Source: Rhodospirillales bacterium (GTDB taxonomy: Bacteria > Pseudomonadota > Alphaproteobacteria > UBA828). Taken from it: 31,819 nt of DNA. Positions 2,902 through 31,218 of this stretch are shown here, piece after piece. The notes beneath the pieces were generated by a model. That model did no database searches. It worked only from the letters and a program-made list of their open reading frames with translations, and had not been told where the DNA came from. A program made the position numbers and the translations under genes. The stretch spans positions 1-31,819 of the forward strand of contig JAPOPO010000196.1 in the NCBI GenBank assembly GCA_026712885.1. The letters are read 5' to 3'. The stretch's first letter is position 1, and every line of letters starts with the position of its first letter.

Positions 2902-2904
2902 GGC

Positions 2905-3366: not shown

Positions 3367-3367
3367 A

Positions 3368-7230: not shown

Positions 7231-7854
7231 CTCGTCTCCGGTGGGTGTGGTTTCGGTGGGTGTGGGCGCCGGCGCGGAAAACCGCTCGTCCTCCGACGCG
7301 GCGTCGCGGACCGTCTCGATCTCGTACTCCGGCAGGATGCGGTCGGCCGTCTCGATATCGTTGTTCTCGATGATCCAGTCGCGGACCCCGGAAAACAGCG
7401 AGGCGACGGAACGCCACGTCCACGGCTTCGCGTCGAACTGCACCGTCAGGTAGTCGTCGTCGGCCTCGAATGCCACCGCGCCCAGGCCCGGGCAGCCCGG
7501 CGCGGCCGCGCCCAAAAGCCCCACGTGGCGCAACGCGAATTTTCCGGGGTGGGGATTGCTGCGGGCGTCGGGACGCCAGAAGCTCGCCGACACGCGGCGG
7601 TATTTGCCCTCGTCGACGATCTTCTTCACTTCGGGATCGACATCGCGGATCGTGCCGTGGAGCACGCCGGCGTCGTCGAATTCCAGCGCCTCGACCCAGC
7701 CGAAGCTGGGGTGGTCGGTGCGCGGATGACCGATGACCAGGGGTGCGGGGTCGGACGCGGAGTCGTACAGCTGCGCGCAGCTGCGCACCGCGGCGTCGTC
7801 GAGCGCCGCGGGCGCCCAGCGGCCCGTCCGGAATATGGGGATGCGCAACTTCAC
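6763..7854 (-). CDS. Head maturation protease (Mu gpI-like) with C-terminal scaffold region
   Basis: IPIFRTG, APLVIGHP, GWVEAL, KYRRVSASF, LRHVGLLGAAAP..PGL motifs. Confidence 0.92.
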   Translation of the reverse strand: MKLRIPIFRTGRWAPAALDDAAVRSCAQLYDSASDPAPLVIGHPRTDHPSFGWVEALEFDDAGVLHGTIRDVDPEVKKIVDEGKYRRVSASFWRPDARSNPHPGKFALRHVGLLGAAAPGCPGLGAVAFEADDDYLTVQFDAKPWTWRSVASLFSGVRDWIIENNDIETADRILPEYEIETVRDAASEDERFSAPAPTPTETTPTGDEMDEQELAARAAAIEQREAAIDAREAETRRESAVSFADAQADAGRVLPREAGPLADVLAALEEHSATVDFADADEPGQAAKWLRDFVSALPARVPQGESAPGADAPHGGSVVSFAAPAGRKADADRLRLHEDATAHAAEHGVSYIDAVRAVQRRAS

Positions 7855-7917
7855 GCACGAATTATTGTGTCGGGATGGGGACCGCTTACGGCAGGTTGTC
7901 GGCAGGCGCGCCGCCGA

Positions 7918-8077
7918 GGTATCGAATTCCGGATCCTCCGGAGCTGAAGCTGCTGCAACGAGGTATCGATTTTCGGCGCCGGCTGCCGTCCAGGACGGCG
8001 AGATCGGTATCTGTTCGCAGTATCGGCCGGCCTATTGTCGTGGCGATCCCGGCGACGGGCGAGGCCCGGCGGTATCG
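7918..8077 (+). repeat. 160-bp direct repeat, copy 1 (copy 2 at 24604-24763)
   Basis: Ungapped hand alignment, 21 mismatches in 160 nt (about 87%); GGTATC at 7918, 7962, 8006 and 8071. Confidence 0.95.
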
Positions 8078-8099
8078 ATCGGCCCGCAGTCGGGTCGAC

Positions 8100-8315
8100 T
8101 CATCGATGCACCCACCGCGAAATGTCATCCGCGAGCGAAAAGGCGGCGCGACGGGCGCGAAAAATGTCGTCGACGCCGCTGAGGGCGTAACGTTCGGCCA
8201 GTGCCGCCGCGGCATCGGCCAGCTCCGTCCTGAGCTCGTCTTCGGACTTCACCCGGGGCTGGCAATAGCACTGAATGAGGCCGGAGAGGCGGCATCTGCA
8301 AGGCGACGCGCTCAC
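8100..8315 (-). CDS. Hypothetical 71-aa protein, last gene of early operon
   Basis: GTG overlaps DUF1643 stop (GTGA); MSASPCRCRLSGLIQCYCQPRVKSEDELRTELA. Confidence 0.55.
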   Translation of the reverse strand: MSASPCRCRLSGLIQCYCQPRVKSEDELRTELADAAAALAERYALSGVDDIFRARRAAFSLADDISRWVHR

Positions 8316-8875
8316 GGCAATTCTTTCCTGAGGCCCTCGATCGACCGCGGCACGAGGTCGTAGGACAGGTACAACGGATGCGCCGGCGAGCCGTTGAAAT
8401 TCAGGCGGAACGCATCGGCGCTGCCCGCCTCGAACAGGTGCCACAACAGGTGTTCGTCCGCGTTGAGCATCCGCGGCACGAGCGGGTGGACGCCCCAGCC
8501 CAGCACCAGGTACCGCGGGTTGTTGTCGACAACAACCCCGATGGTGGTCTCGTTGCGCTCGCCGGGGCCGAACACCTGGCCCGGGTCCTCGAACGGATCC
8601 AGGGTCAACAGGTTGCCGGGGTGCGTCGCGATCCGCGCGAACGCATTGACGACTTCCAGGCGCATGCAGCCCAGGCGCCGGGCGAAACCGACCAGCTTGC
8701 GCACGGTCGGATCGTCCTCATCGGCATCGGCGCTGGAGGGGTTCAGTCCGGCGAACGCCAGCGTGCCGGAGCCCTCGCCGAAGTTCCTGCCCCACTCGCG
8801 CCACAGCCGGTACCGGAAACGCCCGCACCCGCTGATCGAAGCGCCCTGGTCGAGGTATTTCAGGGCCGAGCTCAT
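8312..8875 (-). CDS. DUF1643 family protein
   Basis: A.ISGCGRFRYRLWREW, GLNPSSAD...DDPTVRKL.GFA, VVNAFA..ATHP, LGWG, G.PAHPLYL. Confidence 0.88.
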   Translation of the reverse strand: MSSALKYLDQGASISGCGRFRYRLWREWGRNFGEGSGTLAFAGLNPSSADADEDDPTVRKLVGFARRLGCMRLEVVNAFARIATHPGNLLTLDPFEDPGQVFGPGERNETTIGVVVDNNPRYLVLGWGVHPLVPRMLNADEHLLWHLFEAGSADAFRLNFNGSPAHPLYLSYDLVPRSIEGLRKELP

Positions 8876-9702
8876 GAGCCGCTCTCCCGGACCCTGCGGC
8901 CGCGCTCGTATTCCAGGATCGCGAGCCGGAGCCGCGCCGGTTCGATCCCGGCGGGTCCCTTCTGCGGGACATTGTTGCCGTTATTCAGCAGGGCCAGCAC
9001 GCCCTTGGGCACGCACATCAGGTTATCTATCTCGTTGTTCAGGGGATCGCCGTCCTCGTGAACGATGGCGTGGCCGGGCGGGATCCCGCCCTTATCCCGC
9101 TCCCACACCCAGCGGGCCTTGATGGTCCAATGGGAATTGAACCCGGTGCCGTTCTTCCTGATTGACTCGTAAGGCGACGGGCCGGGCACCTTGATCTGCA
9201 CGGCGCCTTTGCAGAACCGCTCCGAATACATGGGCCGGATGTTGCCGGGCCGGTGCCCGGGCTTGAACCACGTCTTTTCGCACCCCGGAGGATGCCAGCC
9301 CTTTCGGCCCTTGTTCGCGGGCGTATGGCCCTTCTGGAAGCGGACCAGGTTCCTCTCCCGCCTCACCCCGAGGCGGCGCGCCTGGCCCAGCATCATCGAC
9401 TTGGTCAGGCGCCGCCCGAACCGTTCCTCGAACAGGTCCGCCACCTGGCCGTAGGGCGTGTCCGGGATGGTTTCTCGCAGAAACGAAAGTTCCTCGCCGG
9501 TGTACGGGGACGGCGGGGTCTTCACCCCGGCGTTGGCGAGCACCCCGGGGAAATGGTTCTTCTGCGCGGCTCTCAGCTGCGCGCCGGTGATGGACGTGCC
9601 GAACTCGGAGTTGAACAGCCGGACGGTCTCTTCCACCGTGTGCCTCGGGTACTCGATGACCAGCCACACGAGGCGCTCCGGGTTCATCCACCTACCGGCC
9701 AT
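8872..9702 (-). CDS. HNH endonuclease family protein with N-terminal helical repeats and NUMOD-like motifs
   Basis: FQKGHTPANKG, WFKPGHRPGN, RWVWE...G.IPPGHAIVHEDGDPLNNEIDNL. Confidence 0.85.
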   Translation of the reverse strand: MAGRWMNPERLVWLVIEYPRHTVEETVRLFNSEFGTSITGAQLRAAQKNHFPGVLANAGVKTPPSPYTGEELSFLRETIPDTPYGQVADLFEERFGRRLTKSMMLGQARRLGVRRERNLVRFQKGHTPANKGRKGWHPPGCEKTWFKPGHRPGNIRPMYSERFCKGAVQIKVPGPSPYESIRKNGTGFNSHWTIKARWVWERDKGGIPPGHAIVHEDGDPLNNEIDNLMCVPKGVLALLNNGNNVPQKGPAGIEPARLRLAILEYERGRRVRESGS

Positions 9703-10945: not shown

Positions 10946-11391
10946 GCCTGTTTCCTCGCGAGCATGGCCTTCAGACCCTCGATGACGCGCCAGGCGTCGG
11001 CGGAGGTGGCGATGCGGGCGCTGCCGTAGCGCCGTTCCAGCCACACCAGGTACCGCCTTTCGTCGGGGAAGATCTGCGGCCACAGATCGTCTATGAAGCG
11101 CCGCTGCTTCGCGGTTGCCAGGCGGGTCACGCCCTTCGGCAGACGCGGCGGCGGGGCGTCGGTGTCCGCCGGCGCCGGGTCGCGCGGCGTCTGGCGCGAG
11201 ACGCCCTTCGGCGCCGGGCCGCCGAACAGGTGGCGGATCAGGTCGTGGGCCTGGCGCCGGTCCAGGTCCTTGCAGGTGCGCGCGCCGTAGCGGGCAACGA
11301 GCACCTCGCGGTAGGCGTCGTCGTCGAGGCCGGCCTTGCGGGCGGCCACGTGCACCGTGCGGATCTGCGCACTGGAGATGGGCTTGCTCAT
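10942..11391 (-). CDS. gemA: GemA/Mu gp16-like protein (DUF1018)
   Basis: AQIRTVHVAARKAGLDDDAYREVL..RYG.RTCKDL; C-terminal A.RVIEGLKAM. Confidence 0.88.
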   Translation of the reverse strand: MSKPISSAQIRTVHVAARKAGLDDDAYREVLVARYGARTCKDLDRRQAHDLIRHLFGGPAPKGVSRQTPRDPAPADTDAPPPRLPKGVTRLATAKQRRFIDDLWPQIFPDERRYLVWLERRYGSARIATSADAWRVIEGLKAMLARKQA

Positions 11392-12257
11392 GCCGCCGCC
11401 GTCCGGCGCTCGCGGCGCTGTCTGAGCGCCTCGGCCACGGCGGCCTCCGGCGGGGCCCCGGACGGCGCCGCGGGCGCGGCCGGGGCGTCGCCGAGCGCCA
11501 GCCGGACGTCGGCGGCGGAAATCCGGATCGCGCCCTCGCGAGCCCGGCTCGCCGCCAGCGAGCGGTCCAGGAGATCGGCCAGATCCAGCCAGTTCCTCGA
11601 TCGGGGATCGGCGACGAGCCGCTCAAGCGCGGCGTCGCCGATCAGCGGCGCATCCGCCGAGGGCCGCATCGCCCGCGACGCGGCCTCGCGGGCCTCGGCG
11701 CCGGAGAGACCGGCCAGGACCACCCGGTCGGCGCGACGGCCCACCTCGGGGATGGCCGCCGCGCGGTCGGACTGGCCCACGAGCACGATCGCCAGCAGCG
11801 GCGCGCGGCCCATCCAGGCCAGCTCCAGCAACCGCTTCAGCCCCACCGCGGTGCGGTAATGCAGCCGGTGCGCGTCGTCGACCGCGAGCGCGACGGGGCG
11901 CCGCCGCGAGGCCGCGCCCAGGATGCGGCGCACCTGCCGGGAGCGGGCCTCGCCGCTGCGCCGGGGGCGTTCCTCGGAGAGGTCCGCGACGATCGCCGCG
12001 GCGATGTCGCCCAGGTGAAGGCGGTCGCGGTCCAGCCGCACCGGCTCCACCACGGCGCAGTCCAGGCCCCGCAGCGCCTCGCGCACCGCCACGCTCTTGC
12101 CCGATCCGCGGGGCCCGACGACGGACACGAGCGCGCGGGCGGTCACCGCGGCGTCCACGACCGATACGACGCGGCGCAGGTCGCCCGTGACCGTGGGCGG
12201 GCCGGGCCAGGGTTGCGGCGCCAGCCCCGCCGAGGCCCTTCTCAGCAGGCGGCTCAC
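11388..12257 (-). CDS. Transposition ATPase (MuB functional analogue, ExeA-like AAA)
   Basis: Walker A GPRGSGKS, Walker B LAVDDAH, LVGQ motif; directly follows transposase. Confidence 0.9.
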   Translation of the reverse strand: MSRLLRRASAGLAPQPWPGPPTVTGDLRRVVSVVDAAVTARALVSVVGPRGSGKSVAVREALRGLDCAVVEPVRLDRDRLHLGDIAAAIVADLSEERPRRSGEARSRQVRRILGAASRRRPVALAVDDAHRLHYRTAVGLKRLLELAWMGRAPLLAIVLVGQSDRAAAIPEVGRRADRVVLAGLSGAEAREAASRAMRPSADAPLIGDAALERLVADPRSRNWLDLADLLDRSLAASRAREGAIRISAADVRLALGDAPAAPAAPSGAPPEAAVAEALRQRRERRTAAA

Positions 12258-13876
12258 GACGCCTCCCGCACGGCGGCGAGCTCTCGGGCGAGCGACCGGA
12301 CCGCGTCGCGGTCCAGGCCCGCGTCGCGGATCTCCGCCCCGACCATCCCGAGCAGCCCCGGGGACAACGGCCAGGGATACAGTTCGGCGAACTCGCCGAG
12401 CGCCTCCTCCAGCGAGGCGTACGCGCCGCCGACGCGCAGCGGGTTGTCCAGAGGCGCCCCGGGCACCGCCTTTCGCATCAGCCGCGGGGGGCCGGCCTCG
12501 GCGGCGGGGGCGGGGGCGTAGACGTCGGCGCGGCCGTCCGGGGCGCCGGACTCGAGCAGCTTCTCAAGCGGGGACGCCGGTACCGCGCGCACGTGGCCGT
12601 AGGGCCTGATCTGGAGCGGGCGGGCCTCGCGCCGCTCGGGGGGCTTGGAGCCTTCCAGTTCCACCGCGATGCGCCCGGCCGCCGCGGCGGCGCCGACGAG
12701 CGGGCGGCGGCAGATCACCCAGCAGTCGTGCCAGTCGGGCACCTCGTACTGGACCGAATCCCAGCTGAGCACCCCGGCGTTGTTCACGCGCCGTCTCGCG
12801 CGCTGCGCGGCGGCCGCGAGCGCGTCGGGCGGCATCGCCACCAGCGGGCGCTCCGCCGGGCGGCGCGAGCCCAGCGCCGCCCAGGCGTCCGCGCGGGGCA
12901 CGGGGCGCCCGCCCACCGGCGTCCTGGACGGGCGCCGCGCGTTCTCCCGCGCGTCGTATTCGCGCAGGCGCGAGTTGAGGTCCGACAGCAGGATCGTCTC
13001 CCCGCGCAGGCCCAACGCGGTCTCGAAGCGGCGCCAGCGCGAGCGGTGCGAGCGCTCCACCCCGCCCATCCGGGTTTTCGCGTAGGGCAGCCCAACGACC
13101 ACTTCGATGTCCAGGGCCTCCAGCAGCTCCGCCGCGGCGGCGCCCTTGAACAACGGCCCCTGATCGGTCCACAGGTGCTCCGGCACGCCGTGGCCCGGCA
13201 GCCGGGGATCCTCCGAGGGCTGGCAGGCGCCGATCAAAAAGTCCAGCGCGTCGGCGGAGTTCTCGCCCTGCGCCACGTAGGCGCGGGCCTCCACGTACCC
13301 CGTGCACAGGTCCCAGATCGAGTAATAGACCACGCGCTCGCGCCCCGGCGGCAACGGCTTGTTCTTGTACCCGCCCGCGGAGATCCTGCGGCGGTGGAAC
13401 TTCAGCAACCAGTCGCCGTCGGCGCCGTCGCGCTCCAGCACCGCCATGTGGGCGCTGTGGCTGCCGTCGATCTGCACGGCCTGCCAGGGGTAGTCGGCGT
13501 GGAGGCGCTGGGTGCGCTTGCGGGACGGCGCGAGCCCCAGCTCGCGGCGCACGCGGTAGGCGGTGGACAACGGCATGGCGAGCGCCTGCGGCGGCAGGTC
13601 CCCGGCCGCAACCGCCGCCTCGATGGCGTCCTCCAGCACCGCGCCGGTGCGCGCCGCCCAGCGCACCGCGACCTGAACCCACTCGCGGTAATCGGGGATC
13701 GCGGCGCGGCCGGACCTCGACGCCACGGCGCGGTGCCCGCGGGTGAGCCGGTAGACGGTGCCAGCGGACACGCCGTAGCGCTTCGCGAGTTCGGCGATGA
13801 CGACGGCCGTGTGGCCGTGGGGGGCGGCGTCGATCTCCGCGGCCATGCGCCGCACGGTGGCGGGGTCCAGGCTCAC
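12254..13876 (-). CDS. DDE transposase (MuA analogue, B3/BcepMu type)
   Basis: N-terminal HTH (LAKRYGVSAGTVYR); QIDGS, WTDQGP and GGVERSH give an intact D-D-E triad; no frameshift seen. Confidence 0.92.
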   Translation of the reverse strand: MSLDPATVRRMAAEIDAAPHGHTAVVIAELAKRYGVSAGTVYRLTRGHRAVASRSGRAAIPDYREWVQVAVRWAARTGAVLEDAIEAAVAAGDLPPQALAMPLSTAYRVRRELGLAPSRKRTQRLHADYPWQAVQIDGSHSAHMAVLERDGADGDWLLKFHRRRISAGGYKNKPLPPGRERVVYYSIWDLCTGYVEARAYVAQGENSADALDFLIGACQPSEDPRLPGHGVPEHLWTDQGPLFKGAAAAELLEALDIEVVVGLPYAKTRMGGVERSHRSRWRRFETALGLRGETILLSDLNSRLREYDARENARRPSRTPVGGRPVPRADAWAALGSRRPAERPLVAMPPDALAAAAQRARRRVNNAGVLSWDSVQYEVPDWHDCWVICRRPLVGAAAAAGRIAVELEGSKPPERREARPLQIRPYGHVRAVPASPLEKLLESGAPDGRADVYAPAPAAEAGPPRLMRKAVPGAPLDNPLRVGGAYASLEEALGEFAELYPWPLSPGLLGMVGAEIRDAGLDRDAVRSLARELAAVREAS

Positions 13877-20187: not shown

Positions 20188-20532
20188 TCACCTCGGCCGC
20201 TGCGAAGTCCTGATCTCCACCTCGGTCCGCCACACCGCGACGTCGGGCGGTACCGCTCCGAGTGAGCGGATTTCGGCGGCCAGGTATTCGCAGTGATCGT
20301 GAATGACGGTGCTGTCGGCGGGCACACCCCTAGAGCTGTTGCGCTCTGCCGGCGCCATCGTGCAGCCCCACATGACGTATTCCGGAATGATGAAATGATC
20401 GGCCAGCCACAACCGGTCGGTTGCCGTTTCGCGGTTGTGGGCCGCGATCATCCCGCCTATCACGGGTGTGCGCTCCATCGTTGTGCATGACGTCAGGCAC
20501 AACAACGCGAACAGCGCGGCCACGGGCCTCAT
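20188..20532 (-). CDS. Lipoprotein of unknown function
   Basis: MRPVAALFALLCLTSC signal with lipobox-like LTSC; ATGA overlap with upstream gene. Confidence 0.7.
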   Translation of the reverse strand: MRPVAALFALLCLTSCTTMERTPVIGGMIAAHNRETATDRLWLADHFIIPEYVMWGCTMAPAERNSSRGVPADSTVIHDHCEYLAAEIRSLGAVPPDVAVWRTEVEIRTSQRPR

Positions 20533-21371: not shown

Positions 21372-23198
21372 CTACCTTGCGTTGATCTGAGTGAGCGACC
21401 ATGTACCGGCGTCATTTCCGCCGACCTTGTAGACGGAAGCGATGAGCTGAGTGCCAGCGTCGTTCAGTCGAAGCGTGACGCCCGCTCTGTTGGGGATGTT
21501 TTTTGGTGTGTTGGTCAGGATCGGGAATCGCCTGTCTACGGCGCTCATCATCACACGAGAAATCCGCTTTCCGAACTGCTCTGCCGCCACATCGTTCTCA
21601 GTGATCCAGACCTCGAACTCGTCGTCCGTGGCCCTGATTGCGTAGGGACTGGCGCCGGCGAGTGCGCGCCATTTGCCGATCCCCGTGACGGGCAACACGA
21701 TCTGGATTGTTTCCAGCAGAGTGCCCGAGCTGTCTTCTATCCGCAGCGATGGGTTTCCGCCAGCCAGTCCGTCGGCCGCATTCTGCACGAGAGTGCGGGA
21801 CTGTACCGCTGTAAACGCGAGAGAGGCAACCGCTTCGTCGGTCGCGTTGACGTACCCTCCGTTTCGCCCGCTTACGTTGAGACGCATCCGCGTGCCGGCC
21901 GGCCACGTGCCATCCACTCGATGCAGGACGACTCTCAAGGTAAACCGGCCCTGGTCATGTGGAATCGTTGGCGGGACAACGGAGATGCTGCCGGGCCATC
22001 GAGCCGCCGTATTGGCGTCCGCGGCGGCCTGAGCCGTTGCCGCGGCGGCCCGCGCCGGCGCGTCGGCTCCGCCTCCGCTGCCTTCCGCGAGTGCGACAAG
22101 GTCGGCTGTAATTTCAGCCTGCTGAACGTCGCTCGCATTGAGCAGACGGACAATAACTGTCTCGACGGCGTTGTCGGCAAGCCCGTCCAGCGCAGTCGCC
22201 ATGGCCGTCGTGACCAGCACCTGAATAGGGATCGAAGTCGAGTGCTGATTGACCACTACCGCAATGGTCTGCGTGACTCCGCCAATGGTCACTGACGCCT
22301 TCGTTACATCGGTATATAGGCCCGGAGCAACAAAGAGATTCAGTTCGAACTTATCGGGGAGAGCGCCCTTGTTGATCTGCGCCGGAGAGACGACGAGCGC
22401 GTGTGGAGTGCCCGGCTCTACCGGCTGTCGCAGGATGTTGCCGACGCGCGTCCAGACCGCGGTGCGGAACATCAGCGCCATGATGATGTCGCCCGCCTCG
22501 GCTGAGGTAAGCGCCGTCTCCGGATCGGAAATGTCCACGAACGAAATGCCGGCGGCCACGTCCGCGCGGAGAATGATGACGTCGCTGCCCAGGTTTGCTT
22601 CGTCAATCCGGGGCAGCGTCGCGGCAACCGAGATGTGCGCCGACCGGAACGCCGCGCGGAACGCCTTGCGCTTGGCCGCGTCGGAGACATCCATTTTGGC
22701 GGCCGACAGACTGCCGTCCGCGATTTCGCCCGGCGCCGCGGCGGCCGCCGTATCGGTCACCTTGACCCACGTCGCCGCGCCCGCGAATTGCATTGTCACG
22801 GCGGTACCGGGCGGAATCTCCAGCGTCCGCCCGGCGCCCTCTATCCGGTCGGTGATGCCCACGTCGAACGTGAGCGCCGCCGTCGCGGAGTTCAGGAGCC
22901 GCACCCAGAATCCCCCGCCGACAGAGCCGGACTTGGTGAACGTGCGGGGCGTCGCGCCGGTCAGCCGGATGGTATTGCCGCGATCGGCGAGGGTGATGTT
23001 GCGGTCAGCGGCCGTCGAAACAATGGCCGCGCGGCGTCGGTAGCCGCTCAGCGCGTCGCCGATCTGCGTAGCCACCTCATCGGCGTCGACATCGTCGGCC
23101 TCCGCGGCGTTGATGAGCGCCTGCACCTGCGCCGCATTCAGGCCGGAGCCCGGAGTCGCCGGGGCGCCGCCTCCAGATCCTGGAAGGTAGAACGGCAC
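21372..23198 (-). CDS. 608-aa putative fibre/adhesin-like virion protein
   Basis: Gly/Ala/Thr/Val-rich beta-type modules, ITLADRGNTIRLTG...GFWVRLLN fibre-like domain; lies in operon with gpW. Confidence 0.65.
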   Translation of the reverse strand: MPFYLPGSGGGAPATPGSGLNAAQVQALINAAEADDVDADEVATQIGDALSGYRRRAAIVSTAADRNITLADRGNTIRLTGATPRTFTKSGSVGGGFWVRLLNSATAALTFDVGITDRIEGAGRTLEIPPGTAVTMQFAGAATWVKVTDTAAAAAPGEIADGSLSAAKMDVSDAAKRKAFRAAFRSAHISVAATLPRIDEANLGSDVIILRADVAAGISFVDISDPETALTSAEAGDIIMALMFRTAVWTRVGNILRQPVEPGTPHALVVSPAQINKGALPDKFELNLFVAPGLYTDVTKASVTIGGVTQTIAVVVNQHSTSIPIQVLVTTAMATALDGLADNAVETVIVRLLNASDVQQAEITADLVALAEGSGGGADAPARAAAATAQAAADANTAARWPGSISVVPPTIPHDQGRFTLRVVLHRVDGTWPAGTRMRLNVSGRNGGYVNATDEAVASLAFTAVQSRTLVQNAADGLAGGNPSLRIEDSSGTLLETIQIVLPVTGIGKWRALAGASPYAIRATDDEFEVWITENDVAAEQFGKRISRVMMSAVDRRFPILTNTPKNIPNRAGVTLRLNDAGTQLIASVYKVGGNDAGTWSLTQINAR

Positions 23199-23202
23199 GG
23201 GG

Positions 23203-23529
23203 TTACGCCAGGGCGGCGAGGTGGGCGATCGCCTCGGCGCCGACGGCGGTGAGGCGCACGGCGGTGATCGCGGCCGGCAGCTCCGCGCCGCTGTCTCCGG
23301 CCAGCGCGGTGGAGGCGCCGATCTGGACGTCGATCCAGGAGGCGTTTCCGGCCTCCACGTCGGCGATGCTGCGGCACGAGGTCGACAGCACGGCGCTGCC
23401 CCCGGCGCCGGGGTGCACCTGCACGGCGATGGAGGAGGCGGCGATGTCCAGCACGACGATGTCGCTCTCTCCGGCGGCGGCGGTCAGCTCGGCATAGAAT
23501 CTGTGGCGGTCGCCGTCTGTAATGGCCAT
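23203..23529 (-). CDS. Hypothetical 108-aa beta-sandwich-like protein
   Basis: Clean ORF between W and the fibre-like gene; SIAVQVHPGAGGSA...NASWID...ITAVRLTA. Confidence 0.7.
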   Translation of the reverse strand: MAITDGDRHRFYAELTAAAGESDIVVLDIAASSIAVQVHPGAGGSAVLSTSCRSIADVEAGNASWIDVQIGASTALAGDSGAELPAAITAVRLTAVGAEAIAHLAALA

Positions 23530-23550: not shown

Positions 23551-23901
23551 CTATCCGGCGTTCGGGCTGACGACGATCTCGTCGACGCGCACGGCGTCGC
23601 CGGTCTCTGGATCCACCGCGTCGATGTCCATGACGGCTCGGCCCGGCGCCACCTCCCGCAGGCTCACCGCGGTGACGCGCACGCGCGGTTCCCATCGGTC
23701 CAGGGCCTCGGCGGTGGACGCCCGCAGCCGCCCGTGCAAGCCCCTGTCCATGGGTCCGTCGAGCAGCTCGGGCAGGTCCGATCCGTAGTCCGGGCGCATG
23801 ATGCGGGTGCCCTTGGGCGTGAGCAGGATGTCGGCGATGGACTGGCGCAGGTGCTCGGCGCCGCCGAGCGGGGCGCCGGTCGCGGCGTCCATGCCGTTCA
23901 C
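23551..23901 (-). CDS. Baseplate wedge protein gpW/gp25
   Basis: GMDAATG..L...EHLRQSIADILLTPKGTRIMRPDYGS.LPELLD.P...AEALDRWEPRVRV. Confidence 0.95.
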   Translation of the reverse strand: MNGMDAATGAPLGGAEHLRQSIADILLTPKGTRIMRPDYGSDLPELLDGPMDRGLHGRLRASTAEALDRWEPRVRVTAVSLREVAPGRAVMDIDAVDPETGDAVRVDEIVVSPNAG

Positions 23902-24719
23902 CGGGAGTACTCCCCGTCGCCCAACCAGGCGGCGATGCGCTCGGCCTGGCGCCGGCGGCCCGGGTACTTCGGGTCGGTGGCGAACGTCGAGTCCATGACT
24001 TCGGCCGCCGCGCTGTCCCAGTCGCCGGCGCGGATCGCCTCCAGCGTCGCGTCGAACCCCGCGCAGGCGGCGCTGAAGCACAGCAGGTACACCGCGTCGC
24101 GGCGGGCGGGCTCGATGGCATCCAGGCGGGCGCGCCCGAGCAGCCGCGCGGCTTCGACTTCGGCCCGTGCGCGGTCCTGGAGCGCCAGGGCATACACCCC
24201 GTCGCGGTCCAGGAGGTGGCCGCAGCCGATATGCCAACCCGTGCCGTCGTCGTAGGGGGTGAGGTTCTCGCCCTCCTGATCGCAGATGGCCGCCATCAAC
24301 GGATCGGCGGCCGGCGGGTCCCCGGCCGGCCGATCCTTTATGCCTTGACGGGGGTTCCCATCGGACCCGGACCCCTCCAACTCGGTATCCTGGGTGGCCG
24401 TGCCCGGCGGGTGCACGGTGACATGGATGTTGACGTCGCGGCCGGCCTCGACGCCGGCGACGTATTCGGCGTCGGCCGTGTAGCTGTCGGTGGAGCTGTC
24501 GGTGGAGCTGTCGGCGGCGCCGCCGCCCAGGCCCGCGGCGTCGGCCGCCCCGCGCAGGGCCCCGAGCTGTGCGCAGCCGCTGAGCGCGGCCAGCGCGAGC
24601 AGCGGTATCGAATTCCGGAGACTCCGGAGCTGAATCGGCTGCCGGGAGGTATCGATTTTAGGCGCCGGCGCCGGGCCGGGCCCGCGAGATCGGTATCTGT
24701 TCGCTGTATCGGGCGGCAT
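23898..24719 (-). CDS. Lipoprotein-signal-bearing T4-type (GH24-like) lysozyme/endolysin
   Basis: LLALAALSG-C lipobox (Cys codon 24573-24575), long linker, then DQEGENLTPYDDGTGWHIGCGHLL and AIRAGDWDSAAAEVMDS. Start uncertain. Confidence 0.8.
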   Translation of the reverse strand: MPPDTANRYRSRGPGPAPAPKIDTSRQPIQLRSLRNSIPLLALAALSGCAQLGALRGAADAAGLGGGAADSSTDSSTDSYTADAEYVAGVEAGRDVNIHVTVHPPGTATQDTELEGSGSDGNPRQGIKDRPAGDPPAADPLMAAICDQEGENLTPYDDGTGWHIGCGHLLDRDGVYALALQDRARAEVEAARLLGRARLDAIEPARRDAVYLLCFSAACAGFDATLEAIRAGDWDSAAAEVMDSTFATDPKYPGRRRQAERIAAWLGDGEYSR

Positions 24720-24763
24720 ATTGTGGTGGCGATCCCGGCGACGGGTGAGGCCAGGCGGTATCG
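24604..24763 (+). repeat. 160-bp direct repeat, copy 2 (overlaps 5' end of the lysozyme gene)
   Basis: See copy 1; GGTATC at 24604, 24648, 24692 and 24757. Confidence 0.95.
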
Positions 24764-24775
24764 ACCGCCCGGAAA

Positions 24776-25552
24776 TCAGATATCCCAGGCCAGCGCGACT
24801 TCGAACCAGTCCGTGCGCCCGGAGCCGGGCGCCAGGCGCCAGCCGCCGGGGAGCGTCGCCTCGAACGGCGGCGCCAGTTCGTCCAGGCCGGCTTCGGCGC
24901 GGTAGGAGACGGTCACCCCGAGCGGGCCGTCCCCGAACGAGCGGTGCCATTGGGCGAGTCCGCTGAAGCGCCGGGCGGCCTCGGTAGAGACCTCCAGCAG
25001 GAGCGAGCCGCCCAGAAGCTCCGGGGTCCATTTCGCGGCGGCGCGCAGGCCGTGCGCGGAGCCGTCGACCCAATCGGTGGGCAAAGCGTTGGCGGCGAGC
25101 GTCGCGTAAAAGTCCCCGAGTTCGGCTCCGACGCCGAAGGCGGCGGCGAAGACCGGCGTGCCGTCGACGCCGTAGCGCCACACCGCGCCATCCCCGTTCA
25201 GCGACCAGGCGCCGACGGTGGCCACCGTCTCGGCTCCGAACTGGGTGACGGCCCGCCAGGGGCCCCGCTCCCAGCGCCGCTCGACCTGCACGTCGGCGGT
25301 GACGCCGTCACGGGCGCAATCCAGCGCGGTGGGCGCCCAGCGGACGTAGCCGCTGGCGTCGATGTTGTCCAGGCCGAGGCGGTATTCGCCGGACACGGCC
25401 TGGGTGGAGACGGCCTCGCCGTCCTCGAAGCAGGCGCCGTGCTCGGCGGAGAGTCCGATCGACAGCGATTCGTCGGCCGTCGCGGCCGTCGGGAAGCAGA
25501 TCGCGGCCAGGGCGCCCGCGCACACATATATATAGGGGGTCCGGGGATTCAT
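24776..25552 (-). CDS. Secreted protein, predicted outer-membrane beta-barrel
   Basis: Signal peptide ending TAATA-DE; alternating amphipathic strands rich in G/W/Y; C-terminal WFEVALAWDI. Confidence 0.6.
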   Translation of the reverse strand: MNPRTPYIYVCAGALAAICFPTAATADESLSIGLSAEHGACFEDGEAVSTQAVSGEYRLGLDNIDASGYVRWAPTALDCARDGVTADVQVERRWERGPWRAVTQFGAETVATVGAWSLNGDGAVWRYGVDGTPVFAAAFGVGAELGDFYATLAANALPTDWVDGSAHGLRAAAKWTPELLGGSLLLEVSTEAARRFSGLAQWHRSFGDGPLGVTVSYRAEAGLDELAPPFEATLPGGWRLAPGSGRTDWFEVALAWDI

Positions 25553-25791
25553 TTCTTGGGCTCCGTCTCGGGGGTGAGTTTGTTGTCGCTGCGCACGACC
25601 TGCATCATCAGCATCCCGAAGACGCTGCTGATGTTCGTCAACACGTCGGTCGGGACGCCGAGCTTGTGCCCGACGGTGACGATCAGGCCCAGGATGACCA
25701 GGCCGCCGAGCACGTTGACGCGCACCCGGGTGGTGCGCAAGCGCACGAGCTCCCGTTTCGCCACGGCCGGCTGTTTGGCGGTATCCGACAT
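25549..25791 (-). CDS. Holin-like small membrane protein
   Basis: 80 aa, basic N-terminus, two hydrophobic segments, charged C-terminus (ETEPKK); first gene of the cassette that contains the lysozyme. Confidence 0.55.
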   Translation of the reverse strand: MSDTAKQPAVAKRELVRLRTTRVRVNVLGGLVILGLIVTVGHKLGVPTDVLTNISSVFGMLMMQVVRSDNKLTPETEPKK

Positions 25792-25865
25792 GCTTGCAGG
25801 CTATTCGACCGCGTGAGCCGGTAATCGGCGTAGTTCTGTCCGCAGCCACTGGCCACAATGCAGCG

Positions 25866-26180
25866 ATGTTCGACGGGCTAGACGTCTCCACCGCCAACGT
25901 ACTTCTCGCCTCGGCGCTGGGCGGTCTGGGCACGCTGCTGGCGCTGGCGATCCGGGCCATCGCCAACCTGCGCCACCGGGTCTCGAAGATCGAGGGCCGC
26001 ATGGAGGCGCGAAACATCTCCGAATCGCTGGCCCACGTGCACGAGCGGGTGGACGAGATTCAGGGGCAGGTGTCCGGGGTGAGCGGGCAGCTCACACAGC
26101 AGAACGAACGCCTGAGCGACCTGGTCAGCACCAACCAGACGTTGATAGAGACGCTGATCTCGCGGCGGAACCAGCAATGA
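25866..26180 (+). CDS. Mu gp25/DUF2730-like membrane-anchored coiled-coil protein
   Basis: N-terminal TM segment, then heptad coiled coil; precedes gp26-like gene. Confidence 0.6.
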   Translation: MFDGLDVSTANVLLASALGGLGTLLALAIRAIANLRHRVSKIEGRMEARNISESLAHVHERVDEIQGQVSGVSGQLTQQNERLSDLVSTNQTLIETLISRRNQQ

Positions 26181-26479
26181 GCCTTCAGGAGAAGCTGGAC
26201 GGCGATCGCCGCCGCGCGATCCTGCGGCTGATATCCACCGGCGGCGAGTCCACCGAAGTGATCGTGCTCGATGTGCTTCGCAAGACATCGCACGGCTTCC
26301 GGTTGACGCGGGCCAGGGTCCGCGCCGACTTCGACTGGTTGCGCGAGCGCCACCTCATCGACGTGGAGATGCTCGGCGATACGTTGATGGTGGCCACCAT
26401 CACCGATATCGGCGAAGAGGTGCTGGTGAATGCGCGGCGCGTGGCCGGCGTGAGCGCGGCGCGTCGGCGGGACCTCTGA
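26177..26479 (+). CDS. Mu gp26-like protein
   Basis: DRRRAILRL...VRADFDWLRE.HLI......VAT.T..GE.V...RRVAGV. Confidence 0.8.
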   Translation: MSLQEKLDGDRRRAILRLISTGGESTEVIVLDVLRKTSHGFRLTRARVRADFDWLRERHLIDVEMLGDTLMVATITDIGEEVLVNARRVAGVSAARRRDL

Positions 26480-26495
26480 CGCCCGCGGGGCGCCC

Positions 26496-27032
26496 ATGGG
26501 CAGGCGCAGCATCATCGACCGGCTGGATCCCGAGATCAGGGAGCGGATCGGGGACCTGAAGAATGCCGGGCACACGCTCGACGAGATCATGGCGCACCTC
26601 AAGCTGATGGATCTCGGCGTGTCGCGCTCGGCGCTGGGGCGCCACACCAAGAGACTCAACGCGATGGCGGCCGACGCCCGCCGCTCCGCCCATATGGCCG
26701 AGGCGATCGTGAAGACCTACGGCGACGCGCCGGAGGAGCTCACCCAGCGGCTCAACATCAAGCTCATGCACGGCATCGTCACCCGGATGATGATCTCCGA
26801 GGAAGGCGACGCGATCACGCTGGACCCGAAGGAAGCGCACATGCTGTCGGGGACGCTGCGCAACCTGGCGTCGGCGTCGCGCGCGGATGTCCTGGTGGCG
26901 CGCGAGGCGAAGAAGTTGCGCGAGCTCAAGCGGAGGATGACGGAGGCGGCGGTCGGAGCCGCCGAAGCGCAGGGCCTCGGCGAGGACATGGCCGAGAGCC
27001 TCCGGGTGGCGATGACGAAGGTGCCCGCGTGA
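26496..27032 (+). CDS. Terminase small subunit (DUF3486, Mu gp27-like)
   Basis: MGRRSIIDRLDPEIRE.I, T..EI..HL....GVSRSALGRH. Confidence 0.9.
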   Translation: MGRRSIIDRLDPEIRERIGDLKNAGHTLDEIMAHLKLMDLGVSRSALGRHTKRLNAMAADARRSAHMAEAIVKTYGDAPEELTQRLNIKLMHGIVTRMMISEEGDAITLDPKEAHMLSGTLRNLASASRADVLVAREAKKLRELKRRMTEAAVGAAEAQGLGEDMAESLRVAMTKVPA

Positions 27033-28585
27033 CGGGCGCCCAGGGCGCCTGGGACGACGGGCTGCCGCTGCTGCTGGACTATCAGGCGGCGTGGAACCGG
27101 GACCGCGCGCCGGTGGCGGTCATAGAGAAGAGCCGCCGCATCGGGATTTCCTGGTCGGACGCCGCGGAGCGGGTATTGCACGCGGCCGAGCCGGTCGGGC
27201 ACGTCGCCTATCAAAGCTACGCCAAGGACATGACCGGGGGGTACATCTCCGACTGCGCCGACTGGGCCAAGCGGTTCGGCAAGGCCGTGCACGAGGTGAC
27301 CGAGCGCGACGTGAGGATCGGCGACGACGAGCACGTGCATCAGTACGAGCTGGCGTTCCCGGGCGGGCGCGCCATCCAGGCGCTGACGAGCTCCGCGAGG
27401 CAACTGCGCTCCCGCGGCCGGCCCGGGGACATCGTGGTGATCGACGAGGCGGCGTTCGTGGACGATCTGGCGGCGGTGCTCCAGGCGGCGATGGCGGTGA
27501 CGGTTTGGGGCGGGTCGGTGCGGATCATCTCCACGCACAACGGCGACGATTCGGAATTCGCGGACCTGGTGAGGGACATCCGCGCCGGACGCTATCCGGA
27601 CTTCAGCCTGCACACCGTGACGCTCGCCGACGCGATCGGCGCCGGTCTCGTGCGGCGGATCCATTCGGTGACCGGCCGCCCCTACACGCCCGACAGCGAC
27701 GCGGAGTTCGAGGCGGGGATCCGCGCCCGCTACAAGGACGGGGACACGGCCGCCGAAGAGTTGGACTGCGCCCCAAGGGCCGGCGGCAGCACGTACCTGC
27801 CGCGGGCGCTGATCGAAGGTTGCATGCGCGAGGGCCTGCCGGTGCTGCAATACACGGGCAGCGCCGAGTTCAACGCGCGGGCGGAGCCTGAGCGCCGCGC
27901 GGAGATGCGGGACTGGATCCGCGAGCGCGTGCATCCGCTGCTGGACACCCTGACGCCGGAGGAACGCCACGCGATGGGCTTCGACGTGGCCCGCACGCAG
28001 CACCTCTCGGCGATCGCGCCGCTGGCGATCGGCCGGGGCCTGCACCGCACCGTGCCGTTCGTGGTCGAGATGCGCAACGTGCCCCACAAGCAGCAGGAGC
28101 AGGTGATGGTCTCGATCGGCCGCAACCTGCCGCGGCTGTGCGGCGTGTGCGTGGACGCCACGGGGCTGGGGTCGTACCTCGCCGAGGCCGCGGCCGACGA
28201 ATGGGGGCCGCTCGCCCAGGGCGTGCAGATCAACGAGCGGTTCTACCGCGAGCGCTGGCCGCCGCTGAAACGCCGCATGGAGGATGCGGCGATCACGCTG
28301 CCCAGAGACGACGGGGTTCTGGAAGACATGCGGTCGGTGACGCTGATCCGCGGCGTGCCGCGCGTGCCGGACCGCCCCGTCAAGGGCCGGTCGCGGGACC
28401 GGCACGGGGACACGGCCATCGCCGTCCTGCTCGCGGACACCGCGGCGGACGACGACACGGGGACGCTGGCGCACCGCGCGGTGCCGGCCGGCGACGACTC
28501 GCGACCGTGGGGCGGACAGGACAGCTGGATCCGGCCCGGCACCGCGCGGGCGCCGTTCGGAGGGTGGACCCATGGCCACGCGTAG
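27029..28585 (+). CDS. Terminase large subunit (Mu gp28-like)
   Basis: LLDYQ.AW, EKSRRIGISW, RSRGRPG.VVIDEAAF, ISTHNG.D..F, GFDVAR, DATGLG, HGDTAIA. Confidence 0.95.
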   Translation: MTGAQGAWDDGLPLLLDYQAAWNRDRAPVAVIEKSRRIGISWSDAAERVLHAAEPVGHVAYQSYAKDMTGGYISDCADWAKRFGKAVHEVTERDVRIGDDEHVHQYELAFPGGRAIQALTSSARQLRSRGRPGDIVVIDEAAFVDDLAAVLQAAMAVTVWGGSVRIISTHNGDDSEFADLVRDIRAGRYPDFSLHTVTLADAIGAGLVRRIHSVTGRPYTPDSDAEFEAGIRARYKDGDTAAEELDCAPRAGGSTYLPRALIEGCMREGLPVLQYTGSAEFNARAEPERRAEMRDWIRERVHPLLDTLTPEERHAMGFDVARTQHLSAIAPLAIGRGLHRTVPFVVEMRNVPHKQQEQVMVSIGRNLPRLCGVCVDATGLGSYLAEAAADEWGPLAQGVQINERFYRERWPPLKRRMEDAAITLPRDDGVLEDMRSVTLIRGVPRVPDRPVKGRSRDRHGDTAIAVLLADTAADDDTGTLAHRAVPAGDDSRPWGGQDSWIRPGTARAPFGGWTHGHA

Positions 28586-30734
28586 GCCGCCGTCGCCGGG
28601 CAAGGTGCTCGCCGGCATCGAGGGCAACCGCGACATCACCCGCGGCTACCTCGACGAACGCAATCTGCTGCAACCCCAGGACGATCTGTCCGGCGGCCGC
28701 CCGCCGGTGACCCGGTACCGGGCCTACCGTTCGCTGTTGCAGGACGATCGTGTGGGCACGTCCTTCCGACAGCGGCGCTCGGCGCTGATCGGGCGCAGCA
28801 CCGAAGTCCGCCCGGGCGGCGATGCCACGATCGACCGCAAGGCCGCCGACTTCGTGCGCGACGCCGTCGTCGAGGCGCTGCCCTGGGACCGCATCTGCAA
28901 TCTCATGCTGTTCGGCACGTTCTACGGGTTGTCCGTTGCCGAGTGCGTCTGGATGCGCGACGGCGCCCACGTCGTGCCCGAGAAAATCCTCGTCAGGGAC
29001 CGGGGTCGCTTCGCCTTCGGCGGCGCCGACGGCTCCGAACTGCGCCTCGTCACGCCGGGCGCCACGGTCCGCGGCGAGACGATGCCCGAGCGCAAGTTCT
29101 GGGTGGTCGCCAGCGGCGGCGACCACGACGACGAACCCTACGGCCTGGGCCTCGGATGGGAAACCTACTGGCCGGTGTTCCTCAAGCGCCAGGGCGTGAC
29201 GCAATGGGCGGACCTGCTGGACCGTTTCGCCCGACCGATCCCGGTCGGGCATTACCAGCGGGAGGCCGACATCGACGCCGTGTACCAGGCGGTGGAGGCG
29301 GTTCGGGACGGCCGCGGCGCGGCCATACCCGCGTCCGCCTCCATCGATCTGCTGGAGGCGCTGAAGTCCGGCCGAACGGACTACAGGGATTGGCTGGACG
29401 TCTGGAACCGCGCGATCACGCTGACGCTGATAGGCCAGACGATGACCACTGAGGACGGGTCGAGCCGCAGCCAGGCGGAGGTCCACTGGCAGGTGCGCCG
29501 GGACATCGTCCAGGCCGACGACGACCTGCTGGCCGACACGCTGCGCGCGCAGGTGCTGAGCTGGCTCATCGAGTGGAACTATCCCGGCGCGGCGGTGCCG
29601 AGAATCCGGCGCGTGCTCGACGATCCGCCGGACACGCATGCGCTGTCGGAGCGCGACCTGCGGATCTGGCGAATGGGGTGGGCGCCGACCGGGGACTACA
29701 TCGGCGACACCTACGATATCGAAGTGACACCGCGACGCATCGATCCTGCGGCGCCGGGGCCCGGCGGCCCGGGCGAATCGACGGACTTCGCCGCGGAGGG
29801 GCCGGCTGAGCGCCCCCTGGCCCAGCAGGCGGCCGACGCCGTGGATCCTCTGATCGCCCGGTGGCCGGCCGAACTGAGCCGGCCGCTGGCTGCCGCCGCC
29901 ACGCTCGCCGAATGGCGCGACGGGCTGACCGGGGCCGGGCAAGGCGTCGACATCGCCCCCGCCGCCGAGGCGCTGGCCGAGGCGCTGGCCGCCGCGCGGC
30001 TGGCCGGCATGTACGACGTCTGGACGGAGGCCGAGGAAGACACGAGCTTCGCCGACGTGGACGGCGTGCGATTGGGGTTTGCCGAGCAGATCGCGTTCTT
30101 CCGGGAGAAACTGAATCTCGGCACCAACGCCTGGACCGACATATGGGAGGCCCAGCACGATCGATCCTTCGTCGTCGCCGGCGCCGCCCGCGACGACCTC
30201 GTGGCGGATCTCAAGGGCGCGGTGGAGGCTGCGATCTCCGACGGTGAGACGCTGGAGACCTTCCGCGCGCGATTCGATGAGATCGTCGAGCGCCACGGCT
30301 GGGCGTACAAGGGCGACCGCCTGTGGCGCACGCGCGTGATCTACAACACCAACATCGCCACGTCGTATTCGGCGGGGCGGTGGACCCAGGCCAACGCCGT
30401 CACCGACCAACGGCCCTACTGGCGATATCGCCACTCCCCCGCCTCCGAGGTGCCTCGACCGGACCACGAGACGTGGGACGGGTTGATCCTGCGCGCCGAC
30501 GATCCGTGGTGGCTCACGCACTGGCCCCCCAACGGCTGGGGCTGCCAGTGCTGGGTGGAGACGCTCTCGATGCGGGACATGGAGCGCCACGACCTCGCTG
30601 TGAGCGAGCCGCCGCCGATGGGTTGGCACGACGTCACTGTCGGTCCCGCCGACAGCCGACGCACCGTGCGCGTGCCCGCCGGCGTCGACGCCGGGTTCGG
30701 TTACGCGCCGGGAGCCAGCCGGGAAGCCGCCTAG
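28572..30734 (+). CDS. Portal protein (DUF935/Mu gp29) fused to head morphogenesis protein F (Mu gp30)
   Basis: Portal motifs (DDEPYGLGL, W..LLDRFARP, GQTMTTEDGSSRSQAEVH) then, with no stop, F motifs (FAEQIAFFREKL, FVVAGA.RDDL, R..VIYNTN, PPNGWGCQC). Confidence 0.9.
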   Translation: MATRRPPSPGKVLAGIEGNRDITRGYLDERNLLQPQDDLSGGRPPVTRYRAYRSLLQDDRVGTSFRQRRSALIGRSTEVRPGGDATIDRKAADFVRDAVVEALPWDRICNLMLFGTFYGLSVAECVWMRDGAHVVPEKILVRDRGRFAFGGADGSELRLVTPGATVRGETMPERKFWVVASGGDHDDEPYGLGLGWETYWPVFLKRQGVTQWADLLDRFARPIPVGHYQREADIDAVYQAVEAVRDGRGAAIPASASIDLLEALKSGRTDYRDWLDVWNRAITLTLIGQTMTTEDGSSRSQAEVHWQVRRDIVQADDDLLADTLRAQVLSWLIEWNYPGAAVPRIRRVLDDPPDTHALSERDLRIWRMGWAPTGDYIGDTYDIEVTPRRIDPAAPGPGGPGESTDFAAEGPAERPLAQQAADAVDPLIARWPAELSRPLAAAATLAEWRDGLTGAGQGVDIAPAAEALAEALAAARLAGMYDVWTEAEEDTSFADVDGVRLGFAEQIAFFREKLNLGTNAWTDIWEAQHDRSFVVAGAARDDLVADLKGAVEAAISDGETLETFRARFDEIVERHGWAYKGDRLWRTRVIYNTNIATSYSAGRWTQANAVTDQRPYWRYRHSPASEVPRPDHETWDGLILRADDPWWLTHWPPNGWGCQCWVETLSMRDMERHDLAVSEPPPMGWHDVTVGPADSRRTVRVPAGVDAGFGYAPGASREAA

Positions 30735-30735
30735 C

Positions 30736-31218
30736 ATGCGCGTCTCCGTCGAGCTCGACGACCGCGCCATCGTCGATGCCATGAACCGCGCCCTGGGCGC
30801 GGCCCGCGACTTGAGCCCCGTCATGCGCGACATCGGCGAGTCGCTGCTCAACTCCACCGGCGAGCGCTTCGGCACACAGACCGCGCCAGACGGCTCCGAC
30901 TGGGCGAAGCTGTCGCCGACGTACAAGGCGCGCAAGCGACGCAACCGCGACAAGATCGGCACCTTGCGCGGTCACCTGCGCGCAACACTCGCTTACGACG
31001 CCGGCCCGGATAGCGTGGTGATCGGCAGCCCGAGGATCTACGCCGGCACGTTTCACTTCGGCGCGGCGAAGGGCGCCTACGGCACGTCCAGGCGAGGACT
31101 GTCCATTCCCTGGGGCGACATCCCCGCCAGGCCCGTCTTCGGCATCTCGGACGCGGACCGGACCGACATCGTCGAGGCGCTCCACGACCACATCGTCGCG
31201 TCGATTCGTCGAAAATAG
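30736..31218 (+). CDS. Virion morphogenesis protein (Mu gpG / P2 gpS-like)
   Basis: DLSPVMRDIGESL..ST.ERF.TQ.APDG..W..LSP, VIGSPRIYA..FHFG, IPARP..GIS. Confidence 0.93.
   Translation: MRVSVELDDRAIVDAMNRALGAARDLSPVMRDIGESLLNSTGERFGTQTAPDGSDWAKLSPTYKARKRRNRDKIGTLRGHLRATLAYDAGPDSVVIGSPRIYAGTFHFGAAKGAYGTSRRGLSIPWGDIPARPVFGISDADRTDIVEALHDHIVASIRRK

Follow-up and report, generated by a model that had tools for sequence, protein, structure and literature searches.

How a phage lysozyme that begins like a bacterial lipoprotein would reach the cell wall, and whether it is produced in that form, are the questions raised by a gene on contig JAPOPO010000196.1 of Rhodospirillales bacterium (assembly GCA_026712885.1). 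The whole contig, 31,819 nucleotides (31.8 kb) read on the forward strand, was analysed and is referred to below as the window; it derives from a metagenome-assembled genome (62% complete, 71% G+C) and, judged from its gene content, is the carrier of a Mu-like transposable prophage. The gene occupies 23898–24719 on the minus strand and, in its longest form with a canonical start, encodes 273 amino acids (aa); codon usage and homologues identify it as a lipoprotein-type lysozyme gene of glycoside hydrolase family 24 (GH24). A preliminary description made from the letters alone had proposed a holin-independent muramidase hanging from a membrane on a long tether. The reading adopted here is that the gene is the endolysin of the prophage, built as a bacterial lipoprotein, and a probability of about 0.72 is assigned to it.

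Translation of 23901–24719 gave L-L-A-L-A-A-L-S-G-C as residues 40–49 (24573–24602, minus strand), followed by A-Q, in the place where a lipobox had been claimed. The hydrophobic h-region spans residues 40–48 and the basic residues Arg32 and Arg35 are encoded just 5' of it; it is closed by L-S-G-C, which fits the pattern [LVI][ASTVI][GAS]C and has its Cys49 codon at 24575–24573, so that the order of elements is that of a lipoprotein signal. The stop codon (23898–23900) overlaps the GTG of the gpW/gp25 gene downstream. A plus-strand open reading frame (ORF) at 24216–24905 is a shadow ORF typical of 71% G+C DNA, and it is the minus frame that bears the codon-usage signal: codon usage is coding-like from about 24600 downward, and at 24551–24384 the G+C content of third codon positions (GC3) was 0.89–1.0 (47th–70th percentile of host genes).

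The signal is shared by a family. Homologues were collected by an exhaustive HMMER search, which gave 92 representatives; nearly all of those with a long N-terminal extension start with a classical lipoprotein signal. In an alignment of 23 sequences, from which Cys conservation was scored and the family profile was built, the lipobox Cys was invariant (23/23). It sits at the C-terminal edge of a 10–14-residue h-region, with Leu, Val or Ala at −3 and Gly, Ala or Ser at −1, and the residue at +2 in the 92 representatives is Val, Ala, Gly, Ser, Leu, Thr, Gln, Ile or Phe, never Asp. A maximum-likelihood tree of 81 catalytic domains placed all 43 sequences with His at the position of Thr26 in T4 lysozyme (T4L) on one side of a branch with support 88/75 and all 38 Thr- or Ser-type sequences on the opposite side. 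A clear lipobox is present in 36 of the 43 and in 0/38 of the others; the remaining His-type sequences look like truncated gene calls and are nested among lipoproteins, so the count for the clade is at least 36. The worry expressed in the preliminary description that homologues might be devoid of the lipobox was not borne out by either the alignment or the clade. Because lipoprotein signal, long spacer and His segregate together in the tree, their co-occurrence is taken, at the level of sequence, to define a subfamily. The clade comprises about 40 representatives at 50% identity, all from metagenomes or prophages, and the closest relative of the window protein, P0003, was called as a 169-aa protein.

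The distribution of the family was followed further. The window lysozyme (P0001) and P0029 gave zero matches by tblastn against 50,697 deposited phage records, and P0022 matched catalytic domains only. A search for related loci based on A4 found none in the genome or viral contig collections. Relatives found through the terminase large subunit (TerL) are prophages at 36–40% identity, all without this lysozyme family. In 49 genomes of the host's order the search for the gene returned solely spurious low-complexity matches with internal stops; the gene is therefore not a feature of that order. The machinery for lipoproteins is encoded by the host genome, with LspA at 140 bits, Lgt at 256 bits and LolA at 78.5 bits, all exceeding the cut-offs. 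The earlier suggestion that the protein, having no Asp at +2, would be sorted to the outer membrane agrees with the residues found at this position in the family and with the presence of LolA; the rule itself is an enterobacterial one and may not be that of this host.

The C-terminal 133 aa (residues 141–273; 23901–24299, minus strand) form a T4-lysozyme-like catalytic domain on profile and fold comparison, as had been described for the part after the linker. The protein alone matched the endolysin family phrog_7 (2.3e-5) and no NCBIfam model. Nine of the 23 family members match the GH24 model PF00959, with values up to 5.6e-14, and the 23-sequence profile matched T4L with an E value of 5.6e-25, the best match in the PDB being the T26H mutant 1qt8. 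When the AlphaFold2 model was submitted to Foldseek, the top 50 matches were nearly all T4L or T4L fusions (probability 1.0), with a target-normalised template-modelling (TM) score of ∼0.66 and a root-mean-square deviation of ∼3.1 Å, as for the two-lobed fold; the predicted local distance difference test (pLDDT) was above 90 in the helical lobe, and the N-lobe was modelled less well (53–76). Glu149 (24275–24273) and Asp158 (24248–24246) align without gaps to Glu11 and Asp20 of T4L in the motif E-G-x-x-L-x-x-Y-x-D ... I-G-x-G-H. Glu149 is nearly invariant; Asp158 shows no variation in close relatives, and most of the wider family retains it as well. The Thr26 position is taken by His163 (24233–24231), invariant in the clade, and the family-profile alignment lacks about 25 N-lobe residues after the G-H motif relative to T4L. 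Cys146 and Cys166 flank the catalytic loop in the nearest relatives; the Cys pair 214/219 is conserved more widely. Thr26 positions the nucleophilic water in the inverting T4L. The T26H exchange turns T4L into a retaining enzyme (PMC5606550). The triad would be Glu-Asp-His and not Glu-Asp-Thr and, because the engineered T26H enzyme is retaining, the clade may act by retention or transglycosylation. Two observations on the family stand apart from this: five of the 23 members weakly match the NCBIfam model of the Bartonella gene-transfer-agent endolysin BgtA (best E value 6.6e-8), and the segment corresponding to residues 133–177, with the catalytic loop, is tandemly repeated in the long metagenomic proteins P0007 (1964 aa; 13 matches) and P0032 (1219 aa; five matches).

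Cys49 and the catalytic domain are joined by a tether of 91 residues (50–140; 24300–24572, minus strand), in line with the roughly 90 aa first estimated. It is acidic (net charge −10; Ala 18%, Gly 15%, Asp 12%, Ser, Thr and Pro 8% each) and predicted to be disordered (pLDDT below 50 in the AlphaFold2 model), with one short predicted beta-hairpin, and it has protein-level motifs in common with the 48%-identical relative P0004, a protein with a short signal peptide and its lipobox Cys at residue 19. The in-frame 12-bp tandem repeat noticed earlier, which encodes D-S-S-T units, was recovered by Tandem Repeats Finder at 24478–24514 (minus strand; period 12, 3.1 copies, 96% matches); its copy number is the same in P0002, a 99%-identical variant. 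The tether had been called long and repeat-extended. The repeat does add about eight residues, but a tether of this length is nothing unusual for its family: 100 residues separate the Cys from the catalytic Glu here, compared with 76–175 there.

The beginning of the gene required separate consideration. Counted from ATG 24719 the lipobox Cys is residue 49 and counted from the in-frame ATT at 24635–24633 it is residue 21, compared with a median of 19 and a range of 11–44 in homologues. The stretch from ATG 24719 to the Cys codon is devoid of ATG, GTG and TTG in every frame. The long n-region remarked upon in the preliminary description is explained by an inserted repeat element, which neither proves nor excludes the ATT start suggested there. 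Copy A of this element (163 bp; 24603–24765, minus strand) holds ATG 24719, ATT 24635 and the whole long n-region together with TCGATAC motifs and a small palindrome, and ends exactly at codon 39, at the start of the h-region. Copy B (7918–8084, minus strand) is 86% identical and non-coding and ends 64 nt upstream of GTG 7854, with which the gene for the head-maturation protease begins. The copies have the same orientation and are the sole two full copies in the genome. A genome search with the lysozyme protein also matched 7794–8030, a similarity at the DNA level and not the protein level; the mismatches between the copies fall 6/5/8 on the three codon positions, without third-position bias, and so do not speak for copy A being coding. 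In the relatives L015, L016 and L018 the lysozyme gene either adjoins the gene before it or overlaps with it, and the element is missing at that junction. Because these three relatives are without such a spacer, with 44–69 nt from the upstream stop to the Cys codon compared with 201 nt here, copy A is, by this comparison of sequences, read as an insertion which took the place of the native start and n-region.

The element contains three TCGATAC motifs, 44 and 109 bp apart; eight occur in the window, where 2.1 are expected, three of them being duplicates through the second copy. The palindrome differs in sequence between the copies and keeps its symmetry. Copy A alone has ATG 24719, ATT 24635 and a TAAAAT hexamer. 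The element gave zero matches in Rfam and zero copies by exact 21-mer in viral or metagenome collections, and neither a sigma-70 consensus promoter nor a terminator was found in it. Each copy is found a short way upstream of a late block's first gene, the block being lysozyme and gpW in one case and protease and capsid in the other. Phage Mu has the activator-dependent promoters Plys and PI, and by analogy the placement of the element recalls these; it is probably a regulatory module, either a late promoter or an activator-binding site. Single TCGATAC motifs were also noted at 18536 and 19472, one isolated motif falling within the repressor/early switch region.

As far as the sequence allows, the start is thus ATG 24719 or else a non-canonical codon, for example ATT 24635, and the alternatives to the ATG are all rare start codons without a Shine–Dalgarno sequence. 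From this follows the rival explanation that survives best, although it too is improbable: the design of the family would be real, with the lipoprotein form compromised in this particular phage by a weak non-canonical start, an aberrant 48-residue signal or decay. In its favour are an element that ends exactly at the h-region, the lack of any ATG, GTG or TTG from 24719 to the Cys codon and the sole difference from the 99%-identical P0002, which falls in the leader. No Shine–Dalgarno-like sequence was found before ATG 24719, ATT 24635 or ATG 24296, whereas GGAG-type sites precede many other genes of the window. The codon score of 24719–24636 is −8.7, a value only suggestive as regards the start, since 24383–24300, a genuine part of the linker, also scores low. 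Against this rival, however, the ORF has remained intact, with its catalytic residues and every Cys preserved; ATG 24719, ATT 24635 and TAAAAT are specific to copy A, as though expression signals had been gained; and long n-regions alone do not block Sec export.

The genes around the lysozyme gene were compared with those of relatives. The minus-strand block opens with a gene (25549–25791) whose 80-aa product contains two hydrophobic segments and gave no family match in Pfam and PHROG scans; it is a holin-like candidate, that role being inferred only. The stop of this gene overlaps the ATG of the next (ATGA). This second gene (24776–25552, minus strand) encodes a 258-aa secreted beta-rich protein with a signal peptide, which is probably an outer-membrane beta-barrel on the basis of language-model features and a mediocre AlphaFold2 model with low TM scores; it is 51% identical to the product of the gene upstream of the relative P0005 and has distant kin at the same place in L016 and L018. 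A complex prediction for the mature lysozyme and this partner scored 0.00, which amounts to no verdict and was used neither way. Divergent from the lysis block lies a DUF2730-like gene (25866–26180, plus strand), assigned from phrog_736, an E value of 7e-4 to the DUF2730 protein of L018 and synteny; it has no match to Pfam DUF2730. The start of the 80-aa gene (25791) is nearly back to back with a packaging-side start at 25794 or 25866, so that divergent promoters would have little space.

In a 4.2-Mb genome the order of genes is GemA, Mor, 130 aa, family lysozyme, DUF2730, 99 aa, gp27, TerL, portal and F, and in L018 it is Mor, 78 aa, 277 aa (barrel-like), 115 aa, lysozyme, DUF2730, 99 aa, gp27 and TerL. 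In these two relatives the gene occupies the slot of the Mu endolysin, after Mor and a few genes before DUF2730, gp27 and terminase. In the window the block of 80-aa, barrel-like and lysozyme genes is inverted relative to the DUF2730-like, gp27 and TerL genes, which are adjacent but divergent; the inversion was seen on comparison of 23898–26180 with the collinear L018:3469–6937. The gene that is start–stop coupled to the lysozyme gene (23551–23901, minus strand) encodes a gpW/gp25 baseplate wedge protein displaced from the V-J-I cluster; the protein is 47% identical to baseplate W of L015, its orthologue. Because the block is inverted and gpW is a displaced orthologue of L015 W, the adjacency of lysozyme and gpW looks, from gene order, like a by-product of rearrangement and not like the sign of a virion lysozyme. 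This sole gpW/gp25 gene lies ∼20 kb from the V-J-I baseplate cluster (1508–3985), in which a 153-aa ORF (2905–3366) with no family match and no similarity to W holds the usual W position. In L015 the barrel and lysozyme genes form their own two-gene unit; three direct TGTCAA-containing repeats precede the pair at L015:7100–7160, in the intergenic region divergent with the protease operon.

The surroundings also bear on the mode of release. The epithet holin-independent, given to the enzyme at the outset, is appropriate for its export but not beyond export, as the 80-aa protein with two transmembrane domains (TMDs) and the DUF2730-like protein adjoin the gene. An endolysin of the signal-anchor-release (SAR) type, held by a transmembrane helix and later set free, is an unlikely description of the enzyme. 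It has the precedent of Mu, whose gp22 is a SAR endolysin that works together with a releasin of the DUF2730 family (PMC9239132); the genes for such releasins are found in transposable phages no more than five genes downstream of the endolysin gene (PMC9239132), and in relatives DUF2730 follows the present lysozyme. Residues 37–55 are rich in Ala, Gly, Ser and Leu, and Cys146 and Cys166 flank the catalytic loop in the nearest relatives. The family Cys, however, always stands at the C-terminal edge of a 10–14-residue h-region with canonical −3 and −1 residues, and polar or Pro-rich sequence begins within a few residues after it, which leaves a segment too short for a transmembrane helix. In SAR enzymes the catalytic domain directly follows the helix, whereas a disordered spacer of 76–175 residues intervenes here, and no weakly hydrophobic TMD of ∼18–20 residues was found right before the catalytic domain.

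It is less likely still that translation from ATG 24296 (MAAICDQ) or another downstream start yields no more than the C-terminal 132 aa, giving a soluble cytoplasmic endolysin with a relic ORF upstream. The product would have the size of classical relatives (130–170 aa) and of P0003 as called (169 aa), and the promoter-like element lies just upstream of the h-region. A start at MAAICDQ, which the preliminary description had itself named as a danger to its proposal, is nevertheless unlikely because codon usage is coding-like from about 24600, with a strong signal and a GC3 of 0.89–1.0 at 24551–24384, and because the linker motifs are conserved with P0004 and, like the lipobox, across the clade; moreover, ATG 24296 has no ribosome-binding site, and the ‘short’ His-type sequences are nested in lipoprotein clades and look like truncated calls. 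Least probable of all is a protein outside lysis, either a virion or baseplate lysozyme or an envelope protein of the lysogen for peptidoglycan remodelling or exclusion, since the start–stop-coupled gpW immediately 3' in the window and the pairing with an outer-membrane-barrel-like protein, as in lysogenic-conversion ‘moron’ genes, are countered by a lipoprotein signal that is hard to square with cytoplasmic virion assembly, by relatives that never place the gene by gpW but in the slot from Mor to DUF2730 to terminase, by the status of gpW as a displaced orthologue of L015 baseplate W and by family searches of 40 window ORFs that found no other muralytic gene as an alternative endolysin.

Under the preferred reading of a lipoprotein endolysin, the type-II signal peptide would take the protein through Sec, and Lgt, LspA and Lnt would lipidate and cleave it at the lipobox Cys. 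Since Asp is absent from +2 and the host possesses Lol, transfer by this system to the inner leaflet of the outer membrane is probable. The acidic disordered tether of ∼90 residues would then let the GH24 domain reach the peptidoglycan, export having taken place without a holin hole. Lysis would presumably be timed by late transcription together with the neighbouring 80-aa two-TMD, beta-barrel-like and DUF2730-like proteins; early lysis may be avoided through the reach of the tether, the Cys pairs 146/166 and 214/219, the barrel partner or the DUF2730-like protein. The signal peptide of apparently 48 residues would be secondary, arising from insertion of the 163-bp element between the partner gene and the h-region.

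Several points count against this reading. Those things that were observed are the anatomy of lipobox, tether and domain, its conservation, the fold, the synteny and the host machinery; lipidation, location in the outer or inner membrane, the role in lysis, the chemistry and the regulation are inferred from them. The protein alone scores 19.2 bits with PF00959, below the gathering threshold of 22.3. The Cys is further from the sole canonical start than in any homologue (49 compared with 11–44). The 28 codons after ATG 24719, which copy a non-coding element, lie at the 0.1 percentile of host coding windows; expression of the gene may therefore depend on a rare start codon or be poor in this phage. 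The lysozyme gene of the window is followed by a baseplate gene instead of DUF2730 and the genome order is scrambled; the source genome is a 62%-complete metagenome assembly. Finally, an active muramidase exported constitutively ought to be toxic, and the analysis revealed no mechanism of control. A wider model is put forward with considerable doubt, as a conjecture that would sooner be wrong than right: Mu-like phages of this clade may lyse diderm hosts by means of a permanently lipid-anchored Glu-Asp-His endolysin, probably in the outer membrane and retaining or transglycosylating, which acts with the barrel and DUF2730 proteins and replaces SAR release or a holin hole, and perhaps spanins.

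The remainder of the window is that of a Mu-like phage by profile and family matches. A MuA-like transposase (12254–13876) and a MuB-like gene (11388–12158) were identified, with gp27/TerS, TerL, portal and virion-morphogenesis genes on the plus strand (25866–31218) and protease, scaffold, major head protein, V-J-I baseplate, fibre and sheath genes on the minus strand (from 7854 down to 2). Genes for a DUF1643 protein and an HNH endonuclease (8312–9687, minus strand) close the early region just before repeat copy B. Downstream of gpW, at 21372–23529 (minus strand), are three ORFs of 108, 584–608 and 278 aa with no Pfam or PHROG match; the 584–608-aa ORF has a Gly-rich N-terminus and could specify a fibre or a protein that binds the receptor. 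The last gene of the same minus-strand block (20188–20532, minus strand) encodes a further predicted lipoprotein, 114 aa long, with a signal ending in L-T-S-C and no family match. A spanin role was considered for it and dismissed, since it has no C-terminal TMD, no richness in Pro and no i-spanin partner; no spanin pair was recognised in the window.

The protein can be set beside several known systems. With T4L (gpe; GH24, PF00959) it shares the two-lobed fold, the profile match and the ungapped catalytic Glu and Asp; it differs in the His for Thr26, in the ∼25 fewer N-lobe residues of its clade and in its lipoprotein signal and tether of ∼90 residues, T4L being cytoplasmic and holin-dependent. 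Mu, with its SAR endolysin gp22 and its releasin gp25 (DUF2730), is likewise a transposable phage, and its enzyme is alike in superfamily, in the genomic slot seen in relatives and in export by Sec without a holin hole; in Mu, however, the SAR helix is releasable, whereas the predicted lipid anchor should be permanent, and the long disordered spacer, the His instead of Thr in the triad and the conserved beta-barrel-like partner are further differences. The o-spanins (lambda Rz1, Mu gp23.1) are lysis-cassette lipoproteins that also have a lipobox and a Pro-containing unstructured mature part, but they are short, lack an enzyme domain and are paired with an i-spanin; the present protein has 273 aa and a lysozyme domain, and no periplasmic partner with a TMD and a coiled coil was recognised in the block. 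Lys44 of Oenococcus phage fOg44 and other signal-peptide endolysins are exported independently of holins by a cleavable N-terminal signal. That of Lys44 is a type-I signal which yields a soluble enzyme in a Gram-positive host, in contrast to a type-II lipobox in a diderm host with Lol. The membrane-bound lytic transglycosylases MltA to MltD of the host are outer-membrane lipoproteins that cleave peptidoglycan; they have other folds outside GH24 and housekeeping roles, whereas the present protein is phage-borne and T4L-like.

A survey of lysis in the Mu family lists SAR and non-SAR endolysin types only. No lipoprotein, lipidated or lipid-anchored endolysin was found in the part of the literature searched or in the 50,697 phage records, and mentions of a lipobox in the phage lysis literature refer to spanins. 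What would be new here is a mode of export and anchoring and an active-site variant, on a known kind of GH24 phage endolysin. Three routes to the cell wall are known for endolysins, namely holin holes, SAR release and export by Sec as soluble proteins. The topology of a conserved clade that carries a lipoprotein signal would be a fourth, and it raises the question of how an exported, tethered muramidase stays harmless until the time of lysis. For annotation, the locus teaches that a long ‘n-region’ can be the artefact of a repeated regulatory element inserted before a gene. For the enzyme family, the clade provides natural active sites with His for Thr26, so far known from the T26H mutant of T4L, on which the natural existence of GH24 enzymes that are retaining or transglycosylating could be tested.

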